Shown: in pieces, positions 1-2,827 of the stretch
How the letters are laid out: each line of letters opens with the position of its first letter
Position numbering within the stretch: position 1 is the stretch's first letter
Sequence record: FN394991.1
Origin: Enterobacteria phage CUS-3
DNA: 2,827 nucleotides
Direction: 5' to 3' (one strand)
Made by a program: the position numbers and the translations under genes
The notes under the pieces: generated by a model
Told to the model about the DNA's origin: nothing
Database searches by the model: none
What the model saw: only the letters and a program-made list of their open reading frames with translations

Positions 1-438
1 ATGGCGCGCCCAACGAAGTATCAAGAGGCGTATGCCGAACAGGCACGCAAACTGTGCTTGCTGGGCTATACAGACGCCGAACTCGCGGACTTCTTTGAAG
101 TTAGCGAGGCAACAATCAACAATTGGAAATTGGAATATCCGGAGTTTTTAGAGTCCATAAAAAAGGGTAAGGCAGTCGCTGATGCAGAAGTTAGTGATCG
201 TCTTTATCAACGCGCTATGGGCTTCGTGGCTCCAGACATCGATATTCGTGTTATTGAAAACAGAATTGTCGAAACTCCTCTTGAGAAGTATTACCCGCCT
301 GATACAACCGCTGCCATTTTCTGGCTTAAGAACCGACAGAAGGATAAATGGCGCGACAAGGTTGATCACGAGCTAACAGGCAAAGACGGCGGCGCAATCC
401 AGATTGAAACATCACCGATGAGCACTCTGTTCGGAAAA
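1..438 (+). CDS. Phage terminase small subunit-like protein with N-terminal HTH DNA-binding domain; 3' end unresolved (runs into N-run 439-538; candidate stop TGA 541-543 only if gap length is exact)
   Basis: Seen: ATG at 1, frame 1 open for 146 codons with no stop before the N-run; frames 2 and 3 have early stops here (e.g. TAG at 146-148 in frame 2), so frame 1 is the coding frame. Translation MARPTKYQEAYAEQARKLCLLGYTDAELADFFEVSEATINNWKLEYPEF... has the R-P-T/S-x-Y start, a helix-turn-helix-like stretch (about nt 52-126) and a basic C-terminal part (FWLKNRQKDKWRDK). Recalled from memory, not searched: this matches the architecture of Sf6-type terminase small subunits. GC about 57% in the first 60 nt. 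Confidence 0.55.
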
Positions 439-538: not shown

Positions 539-1762
539 TCTGAGCCATGTGTAAAATATTATGATGGCATTCTGTATCTGACGACCAGGGGGACATTAAG
601 TACTCAACCCGGTAGTTCATTGCACAGAAGCTCTGATTTAGGTACATCATGGAATTCTCTTCGCTTCCCAAATAATGTTCATCACTCAAACCTTCCTTTT
701 GCCAAAGTTGGCGATGAGCTGGTTATTTTTGGCAGTGAGCGCGCATTTGGTGAGTGGGAAGGAGGAGAACCTGATAACCGTTATGCAGGAAATTATCCAA
801 GAACATTTATGACCAGAGTTAACGTCAATGAGTGGAGTCTGGATAATGTAGAGTGGGTTAATGTTACTGATCAGATTTATCAGGGCGGAATAGTTAACTC
901 TGCGGTTGGTGTTGGTTCAGTTTGTATCAAAGACAACTGGCTGTACTACATTTTCGGTGGGGAAGATTTTCTAAACCCATGGAGCATAGGGGATAACAAC
1001 AGAAAATATCCTTATGTTCACGATGGTCACNNNNNNNNNNNNNNNNNNNNNNNNNNNNNNNNNNNNNNNNNNNNNNNNNNNNNNNNNNNNNNNNNNNNNN
1101 NNNNNNNNNNNNNNNNNNNNNNNNNNNNNNNNNNNNNNNNNNNNNNNNNNNNNNNNNNNNNNNNNNNNNNNNNNNNNNNNNNNNNNNNNNNNNNNNNNNN
1201 NNNNNNNNNNNNNNNNNNNNNNNNNNNNNNNNNNNNNNNNNNNNNNNNNNNNNNNNNNNNNNNNNNNNNNNNNNNNNNNNNNNNNNNNNNNNNNNNNNNN
1301 NNNNNNNNNNNNNNNNNNNNNAGCGGCGGTGAAACAACGTCTTCAGCAGATGGTGCAATGATAACGTTGCATGGTTCCAGAAGCAGTACTCCACGTCGCG
1401 CGGTATATAACGCACTCGAACATCTTTTTGAGAACGGAGATGTTAAACCTTATCTTGATAATGTAAATGCTCTTGGTGGTCCGGGAAACAGGTTCTCGAT
1501 AGTTTATCTTGGCTCCAATCCTGTGGTTACCAGTGACGGAACATTAAAGACAGAGCCGGTCTCTCCTGACGAAGCATTGCTGGATGCCTGGGGTGACGTC
1601 AGGTATATCTCTTATAAATGGCTGAACGCTGTCGCTATAAAGGGGGAAGAAGGGGCGAGGATACATCATGGTGTAATCGCGCAGCAACTTCGTGATGTTC
1701 TTATTTCTCACGGACTCATGGAAGAAGAAAGCACAACATGCTGCTATGCCTTTCTTTGCTAT
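539..1762 (+). CDS. Endosialidase (endo-N-acetylneuraminidase) tailspike protein, partial: catalytic beta-propeller region plus C-terminal region; interrupted by N-run 1031-1321; true start and stop not visible
   Basis: Seen: frame 2 is open with no stop across 539-1030 (164 codons) and 1322-1762 (147 codons); the 291-nt N-run between them is a multiple of 3, so phase is preserved. The first piece carries an Asp-box S-S-D-L-G-T-S-W at 629-652; its translation ...GSERAFGEWEGGEPDNRYAGNYPRTFMTRVNVNEWSLDNVEWVNV...CIKDNWLYYIFGGEDF... is beta-rich and propeller-like. The second piece contains T-S-D-G-T-L-K with Ser at 1532-1534 and Lys at 1547-1549. Recalled: similarity to K1-phage endosialidases (K1F endoNF, CUS-3 tailspike). 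This ORF is absent from the supplied track, probably because no in-window stop terminates it. Confidence 0.7.
629..652 (+). other. Asp-box motif (S-x-D-x-G-x-T/S-W) of a sialidase beta-propeller
   Basis: Seen: codons agc tct gat tta ggt aca tca tgg = S S D L G T S W in the tailspike frame. Established: Asp-boxes are the hallmark repeat of sialidase propeller blades. Confidence 0.6.
1532..1762 (+). other. Start of C-terminal intramolecular chaperone / autoproteolysis domain (peptidase S74-like) of the tailspike; cleavage Ser 1532-1534, catalytic Lys 1547-1549; domain continues into the N-run
   Basis: Seen: S-D-G-T-L-K with Ser and Lys five residues apart, followed by ...RYISYKWLNAVAIKGEEGARIHHGVIAQQLRDVL... 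Established: endosialidases, K5 lyase and T5 tail fibres carry a C-terminal chaperone domain released by Ser-Lys dyad autocleavage. Only about 77 residues after the Ser are visible. Confidence 0.6.
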
Positions 1763-2179
1763 NNNNNNNNNNNNNNNNNNNNNNNNNNNNNNNNNNNNNN
1801 NNNNNNNNNNNNNNNNNNNNNNNNNNNNNNNNNNNNNNNNNNNNNNNNNNNNNNNNNNNNNNNNNNNNNNNNNNNNNNNNNNNNNNNNNNNNNNNNNNNN
1901 NNNNNNNNNNNNNNNNNNNNNNNNNNNNNNNNNNNNNNNNNNNNNNNNNNNNNNNNNNNNNNNNNNNNNNNNNNNNNNNNNNNNNNNNNNNNNNNNNNNN
2001 NNNNNNNNNNNNNNNNNNNNNNNNNNNNNNNNNNNNNNNNNNNNNNNNNNNNNNNNNNNNNNNNNNNNNNNNNNNNNNNNNNNNNNNNNNNNNNNNNNNN
2101 NNNNNNNNNNNNNNNNNNNNNNNNNNNNNNNNNNNNNNNNNNNNNNNNNNNNNNNNNNNNNNNNNNNNNNNNNNNNNNN

Positions 2180-2827
2180 ATGTCGTTTTCCGTTGATGAT
2201 AATGGGTCAGGTAATATTTTTGTATGTGGAGATCTTGTAAATAGCAAAGAGAATAAAGTTCAGTTCAATGGAAACAATAACAAACTTATTATAGAAGATG
2301 ATGTTGAGTGTCGATGGCTTACCGTAATATTTAGGGGTGATAATAATTACGTAAGAATACATAAAAACAGTAAGATTAAAGGTGATATTGTCGCAACAAA
2401 AGGTTCAAAAGTTATTATCGGTAGAAGAACGACAATAGGTGCAGGTTTTGAAGTCGTCACTGATAAGTGCAATGTTACAATTGGCCATGACTGCATGATA
2501 GCAAGAGATGTTATTTTGCGTGCATCAGATGGGCATCCTATATTTGATATTCATAGCAAAAAAAGGATTAATTGGGCAAAAGATATCATTATATCTAGTT
2601 ACGTATGGGTAGGGAGAAATGTCTCTATAATGAAAGGGGTATCTGTTGGAAGCGGATCTGTCATTGGGTATGGGAGTATTGTAACTAAAGATGTGCCATC
2701 TATGTGTGCAGCAGCCGGTAATCCAGCAAAAATAATAAAAAGAAATATAATATGGGCAAGAACGGATAAAGCGGAGCTAATTAGTGATGACAAGAGATGC
2801 TCCAGCTATCATGCGAAGCTCACGCAA
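2180..2827 (+). CDS. neuO: Polysialic acid O-acetyltransferase NeuO-like (hexapeptide-repeat acetyltransferase); 5' end probably lies in masked region 1763-2179; 3' end runs off the window
   Basis: Seen: frame 2 open for 216 codons from ATG 2180 to the window end with no stop. Translation MSFSVDDNGSGNIFVCGDLVNSKENKVQFNGNNNKLIIEDD...IGRRTTIGAGFEVV...VTIGHDCMIARDVILRASDGHPIFD...VWVGRNVSIMKGVSVGSGSVIGYGSIVTKDVP...GNPAKIIK shows repeated [LIV]-G-x4 hexapeptides (about 2414-2700) and a D-G-H-P motif (His codon 2534-2536) typical of the LacA/Maa/NodL O-acetyltransferase family. Recalled: close match to NeuO of prophage CUS-3. GC roughly 25-37% in sampled 60-nt lines versus about 57% at the window start. 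Confidence 0.75.
   Translation, partial: MSFSVDDNGSGNIFVCGDLVNSKENKVQFNGNNNKLIIEDDVECRWLTVIFRGDNNYVRIHKNSKIKGDIVATKGSKVIIGRRTTIGAGFEVVTDKCNVTIGHDCMIARDVILRASDGHPIFDIHSKKRINWAKDIIISSYVWVGRNVSIMKGVSVGSGSVIGYGSIVTKDVPSMCAAAGNPAKIIKRNIIWARTDKAELISDDKRCSSYHAKLTQ

Follow-up and report, generated by a model that had tools for sequence, protein, structure and literature searches.

The boundary between siaK1 and neuO in the Enterobacteria phage CUS-3 record FN394991.1 raises two linked questions, namely what the run of N directly upstream of neuO stands for, and where the repeat tract that switches this gene is to be found. The window analysed here is the whole stretch of 2,827 nt, read on one strand. 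In neuO, the tract consists of AAGACTC heptanucleotides that encode RLKTQDS heptads, and the gene is ON only at copy numbers that are multiples of 3 (PMC3046976, PMC13001214), as the original prediction, made from the window sequence alone, had correctly stated. Three units give one RLKTQDS heptad, and the catalytic efficiency of the enzyme goes up with the number of heptads (PMC3046976). The same prediction described an N run at exactly 1763-2179, an ATG at 2180 directly at its edge, and the absence of any visible AAGACTC repeat, all of which agrees with the window sequence. It also placed the real neuO start and the tract under the N run, and it is this placement that is addressed below. The window comprises the following features.

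1-438, plus strand: fragment 1, terS (small terminase subunit of the P22-like CUS-3 prophage), codons 1-146 without the stop; assigned by homology and sister-record annotation
439-538, no strand: 100-N spacer joining non-adjacent loci, in place of ~18.25 kb of prophage; the N run is also present in FN394998.1
539-1030, plus strand: internal fragment of the siaK1 endosialidase tailspike, catalytic beta-propeller; assigned by identity, sister-record annotation and Pfam
1031-1321, no strand: 291-N gap, its length that of the unsequenced siaK1 interior; from the distance in genomes and the N run of FN394998.1
1322-1762, plus strand: siaK1 fragment 2, residues 748-894 of the 981-aa tailspike; assigned by identity, annotation and Pfam
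1763-2179, no strand: 417-N gap, equivalent to siaK1 codons 895-981 plus TAA (1763-2026) and then the siaK1-neuO intergenic region (2027-2179)
2180-2184, plus strand: native neuO start codon and two further bases (ATGTC), the 5' flank of the poly-psi VNTR; from natural alleles
2184-2185, plus strand: junction where (AAGACTC)n sits in real genomes, the tract being omitted (apparent n=0); the window reads ATGTC directly followed by GTTTTCC
2185-2827, plus strand: neuO body, encoding a polysialic acid O-acetyltransferase with a left-handed beta-helix (hexapeptide-repeat) fold, up to the last sense codon and without the stop; from PDB 3JQY, Pfam and genomes

A search of the phage collection returns 18 sister GenBank records (FN394986-FN395002 less FN394991, plus FN394218), each of exactly 2827 nt and each aligning with the window from end to end, under the title 'Enterobacteria phage CUS-3 partial proviral terminase gene, siaK1 gene and neuO gene, genotype GT_xx'. 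Base-by-base inspection covered two of the 18 (FN394994 and FN394998), and in both the annotated CDS features coincide with the visible blocks of the window: the terminase small subunit at 1-438, siaK1 at 539-1030 and 1322-1762, and neuO, complete at its 5' end, at 2180-2827. The terS block ends exactly at the last sense codon, as does the neuO block. The window contains three runs of N, at 439-538 (100 nt), 1031-1321 (291 nt), and 1763-2179 (417 nt), and FN394998.1, like the other inspected record, carries its N runs at these very coordinates. Because the ranges are identical, the N runs belong to the deposited records, where they lie between separately sequenced fragments, and are not a mask laid over readable sequence, as had been supposed at first. 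FN394998 (GT_14) is also the closest of the listed records, with 35 differing sites, 27 of them in terS, and these differences make the window another genotype of the same series.

Length, block edges, and N runs are thus common to independent isolates, and the blocks themselves are not adjacent in the genome. We consider it highly probable that the window is a composite genotyping record of the Escherichia coli K1 prophage CUS-3, with four blocks joined by N and with the neuO tract omitted. The depositors would have linked the four sequenced blocks (terS, two pieces of siaK1, and neuO) by runs of N. Judging by the 'GT_' labels and by strain names such as IMT and Delta, the records probably originate from the CUS-3 genotyping study of Mordhorst et al. 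2009.

The first block is annotated as 'phage terminase small subunit' (CDS 1-438) in the sister records and is 99.3% identical to a 441-nt CDS that immediately precedes the terminase large subunit in E. coli 04-00955, while a Pfam search gave no match for it. In CUS-3 of strain RS218, terS occupies positions 22265-22705 and the first siaK1 fragment begins at record position 4013, and from these positions the 100-N spacer stands for ~18.25 kb. In the window itself, the terS and siaK1 fragments are only 100 positions apart, which could be read as a real contiguous segment of a degraded prophage, with a deletion fusing terS to the middle of siaK1 and with some stretches masked by a pipeline; CUS-3 tailspikes that are truncated or disrupted by insertion sequences do exist, for example in IMT5155 and VTB96815v. 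Against such a deletion stand the 18 independent isolates that share an identical 2827-nt layout with CDS features ending at the block edges, the IMT5155 genome, in which terS is not next to the siaK1 fragment, and the ends of the terS and neuO blocks at the last sense codon. A fusion of terS to siaK1 was rejected on account of the identical layout in 18 isolates and the lack of any such fusion in the IMT5155 genome, and its probability is close to nil.

Between the window and FN394998, the 27 differing sites among the 438 of terS are clustered at positions 66-150. This clustering, taken together with the 99.3% identity to the terS of the P22-like prophage of E. coli 04-00955, suggests that the packaging module has been exchanged in mosaic fashion between CUS-3 genotypes and other lederbergviruses.

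Two blocks of the window come from siaK1. Block 539-1030 shows 99.6% identity to K1 E. coli tailspike genes, and the Pfam family End_beta_propel matches the full-length homologue of this fragment. Block 1322-1762 shares 99-100% identity with the endosialidase tailspike gene found in prophages of K1 E. coli; it covers the last portion of the catalytic and stalk part and the first portion of the C-terminal intramolecular chaperone domain (Peptidase_S74), which Pfam places at residues 818-878 of the homologue in strain elppa4 (locus L002). In that locus, as well as in the IMT5155 locus (L008), the two fragments are exactly 291 nt apart. The flanks of the 417-N gap are the endosialidase tailspike siaK1 (1322-1762) and neuO (2180-2827), as identity, annotation, Pfam, and PDB matches show.

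The CUS-3 tailspike is truncated or interrupted by IS66 or IS3 in IMT5155 (L008, positions 1-250) and in VTB96815v (H51), with neuO intact in both. Judged from these two sequences, the CUS-3 prophage appears to be decaying while its cargo gene neuO is kept.

The length of the 417-N gap has a direct counterpart in genomes. In four genome loci (L002, L008, L004, and L006), the distance from the end of siaK1 fragment 2 to the native ATG of neuO is 417 nt, with 2-9 mismatches among the four in this stretch. In strain elppa4 (L002, positions 3434-3850), it consists of 87 siaK1 codons followed by TAA (264 nt) and of an AT-rich intergenic region of 153 nt. The codons concerned, 895-981, encode the rest of the C-terminal intramolecular chaperone domain. 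A consensus scan of the same locus finds a candidate sigma-70-like promoter, ATGACA-17-TAAAAT with an extended -10 TG, at the equivalent of 2135-2163, ending 16 nt before the ATG; this site is a consensus match only, PMC9659370 having mapped no transcription start for neuO. It is followed by a Shine-Dalgarno sequence, AGGA, 7 nt before the ATG (equivalent 2169-2172). In length, the N run at 1763-2179 matches what it stands in for, namely the end of the tailspike gene, the promoter, and the ribosome-binding site, and it contains no neuO coding sequence. What it would cover is the unsequenced 3' end of siaK1 (87 codons and the stop) and a 153-nt region with the neuO promoter and ribosome-binding site. 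Since the siaK1 tail and the intergenic region take up all of the 417 nt, no room is left in the gap for a neuO start or for repeats. The expectation of a tailspike stop and an intergenic promoter and ribosome-binding region therefore matches the stretch found in genomes. The arithmetic that accompanied it was approximate, with 76 codons and about 190 nt to spare where the genomes have 87 codons plus the stop and 153 nt of intergenic sequence.

In L002, positions 3695-3736 (equivalent to 2024-2065, within the N run) contain the stop of siaK1 and, overlapping it (TAAATG), the first codon of a 12-codon mini-ORF, MFRWRQKYELLT followed by a stop. This mini-ORF may be a chance occurrence.

On the other side of the gap, neuO is unambiguous. 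Residues 2-216 of the NeuO protein encoded in the window are essentially identical to residues 30-244 of PDB entry 3JQY ('Polysialic acid O-acetyltransferase', E=1.6e-142), the offset of 28 residues corresponding to the four engineered heptads of 3JQY, and the Pfam family Hexapep is matched with E=4.2e-11, as expected for a member of the NeuO family. The position of the gene, directly downstream of the siaK1 tailspike in a P22-like prophage, is that of neuO as well, the siaK1 and neuO blocks being colinear in genomes with 417 nt from the fragment end to the ATG. At the DNA level, 161 complete E. coli genomes have an 'acyltransferase' gene with 100% identity to the right flank, but the match extends over 2183-2827 and does not begin at 2180. 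A match that starts at 2183 is the first sign that ATG does not precede TCGTTTTCC in real genomes. Natural alleles, as found in four genome loci, 11 IMG/VR contigs, and 9 metagenome contigs, read ...TAGGATACTAATATGTC (or ATGTT), then (AAGACTC)n, then GTTTTCCGTTGATGA. Across its neuO start, the window reads ATGTCGTTTTCC, that is, ATGTC directly followed by GTTTTCCGTTGATGA, with the flank GTTTTCC and a copy number of n=0. The visible bases of the window contain no match to AAGACTCAAGACTC at up to 3 mismatches, and no AAGACTC tandem stands two nucleotides after the start codon. Here the sequences that natively border the tract, ATGTC and GTTTTCCGTTGATGA, abut each other, which identifies the ATG at 2180 as the native neuO start codon rather than an internal methionine.

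This junction also bears on the view that the N run masks real contiguous sequence and that this sequence includes the stop of the tailspike gene, the promoter, a neuO start located upstream, and the tract, with the ATG at 2180 as an internal methionine. Such a view accounts for an N run that abuts the ATG with no repeat in sight, and the natural tract does lie near the 5' end of neuO. In genomes, however, the tract is downstream of neuO's start codon, and natural alleles have ...GACTC ahead of GTTTTCC, a place taken by ATGTC in the window; moreover, in four genomes the siaK1 tail together with the intergenic region accounts for all of the 417 nt, and the N run is part of a deposited sister record. 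Masking of this kind is very improbable. An internal methionine with a start further upstream is ruled out by the visible ATGTC flank and by the length arithmetic. The real start that had been sought inside the gap is thus the ATG at 2180 itself, in its ATGTC context, and the natural place of the tract is not under the N run but two nucleotides after this ATG, between 2184 and 2185.

The junction with n=0 could belong to the source strain or to the record, and one strain provides a direct comparison. The blocks of 492, 441, and 643 nt of FN394994.1 (IMT_5155) match the complete genome of IMT5155, NZ_CP005930.1, exactly. At the neuO start, the genome reads ATGTC, 18 copies of AAGACTC, and GTTTTCC, and the typing record of the same strain reads ATGTC followed by GTTTTCC. 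Because FN394994 is devoid of the tract while the genome of its strain has 18 copies, n=0 is attributed to the construction of the record. Both inspected sister records have the n=0 junction, and all 18 have the length of 2827 nt. Evidently, the typing sequences were compiled without the (AAGACTC)n tract, and the IMT5155 comparison suggests that it was removed on purpose; for the window's own strain, we infer the omission from the comparison with the sister record. Leaving out the tract suits phylogenetic genotyping, since it mutates by slippage. In PMC13001214, the repeat region was likewise excluded from the BLAST query. The neuO block of the window would start at the true ATG at 2180, and the hypervariable (AAGACTC)n, normally two bases downstream, would have been removed when the record was built, which joined ATGTC to GTTTTCC.

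Surveys of other sequences agree with this attribution. Among 5,426 complete E. coli genomes, none was hit by a 56-nt probe that scores only across the n=0 junction. Nor is this junction, in its exact form, present in IMG/VR or in metagenome contigs, where the repeat-bearing junction, used as a positive control, occurs 11 and 9 times, respectively. Scans of the genome_contigs collection gave zero for both the n=0 and the repeat-bearing junctions, so that this collection, evidently holding no neuO-bearing representative, is uninformative on n=0. In 14 of the 16 rows calculated, the genome span corresponding to window positions 539-2827 is longer than the span in the window by a multiple of 7, equivalent to 5 to 52 copies; in CE10, one of the two exceptions, the tailspike is annotated as frameshifted. 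Natural copy numbers of neuO range from 2 to 93 (PMC3046976, citing Deszo 2005 and Mordhorst 2009), and from 3 to 53 in 64 complete genomes (PMC13001214).

Taken at its word, the visible ATGTCGTTTTCC is in frame and leads into an intact NeuO core of 216 aa, as it would if the source strain were truly repeat-less, its gene locked in the ON phase and its NeuO made from the ATG at 2180 without a poly-psi domain. Such a neuO, if true, would be a low-efficiency O-acetyltransferase allele that has escaped from contingency switching, and the first natural case below the reported minimum of 2-3 copies. The same junction, however, is found in both inspected sister records, including that of IMT_5155, whose genome has 18 repeats, and the 2827-nt length is common to 18 records; nor is there an n=0 allele in the 5,426 complete genomes, IMG/VR, or metagenome contigs, the natural range being 2-93. 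A repeat-less source strain is hence hardly credible, and n=0 in the living strain is almost certainly not real. The original prediction held that a missing tract together with a start at ATG 2180 would point to a NeuO-like paralogue that does not vary in phase. Formally, the window presents both features, but the paralogue is unwarranted, as the IMT5155 record is repeat-less yet the genome has 18 repeats. The record at face value thus calls for caution, in that it suggests either a hidden tract or a non-phase-variable neuO paralogue, neither of which is real.

In the living source strain, neuO is almost certainly an ordinary contingency gene. As a cargo gene of the P22-like CUS-3, it would be subject to slipped-strand mispairing that alters n, with full-length translation only at n divisible by 3. 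Among the relatives, the copy number does vary, from 3 to 32 in the fetched loci and from 5 to 52 by genome spans. In the 30 genomes listed, the PGAP annotation 'acyltransferase' is present exactly where n is divisible by 3 and is given as 'none' elsewhere (the span of the row 729_270514_x_12 is not a multiple of 7). This pattern, with annotation only at n divisible by 3, indicates the ON/OFF logic at work in the relatives. Whether O-acetylation of the K1 capsule is switched on or off has consequences for phage resistance, killing by neutrophils, and serum sensitivity (PMC13001214). As the original prediction also held, the repeat number and the ON/OFF phase of the isolate cannot be recovered from the window record, from which the tract is absent. 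The phase of K1 capsule O-acetylation is not to be inferred from typing records, and long-read genomes or fragment analysis of the tract are needed for it.

Several alleles show variation in and around the tract. Three poultry isolates, 729_021014_1_4, 729_270514_x_12, and 729_xx_1_3_yolk, carry neuO tracts of ~19, ~32, and 14 units at near-identical chromosome coordinates, which, on the sequences compared, illustrates what would be rapid tract change within a lineage. In L010 (IMGVR_UViG_3300007747_000060, minus strand, just upstream of 1611-1638), 13 copies of AAGACTC come immediately after ...AACGTAGGA at the 5' end of neuO, without the 12 nt TACTAATATGTC and the start codon contained in them; either the allele has no start or the assembly is wrong. 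The 15-unit tract of L011 (IMGVR_UViG_2537562173_000011, minus strand, upstream of 2023-2050) contains the interrupted units AAGCCTC and AAGTCTC, arranged as a duplicated 42-nt higher-order pattern, and interrupted units of this kind could damp slippage. The bases before the tract are ATGTT rather than ATGTC in L006, L016, L018, L022, and L026, including CUS-3 of RS218, which changes codon 2 in ON alleles.

Both the gap and the repeat biology are ordinary and already known, and comparison with the known systems places the window accordingly. In the CUS-3 neuO poly-psi contingency locus (Deszo et al. 2005; Schulz et al. 2011, PMC3046976), the gene, its upstream neighbour siaK1, and the ATGTC and GTTTTCC flanks are as in the window. 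Unlike that locus, the window record is devoid of the (AAGACTC)n tract, a difference due to the construction of the record and not to biology. The conceptual protein of 2180-2827 corresponds to the engineered NeuO+0 (pET22-NeuO+0; Bergfeld et al. 2007, cited in PMC3046976), a NeuO without RLKTQDS heptads; NeuO+0 is a laboratory construct, whereas the heptad-free protein of the window is known from the record alone. The closest counterparts of the window are the GenBank CUS-3 records FN394986-FN395002 and FN394218, with which it shares the length of 2827 nt, the four blocks, the three N runs, and the repeat-less neuO start.
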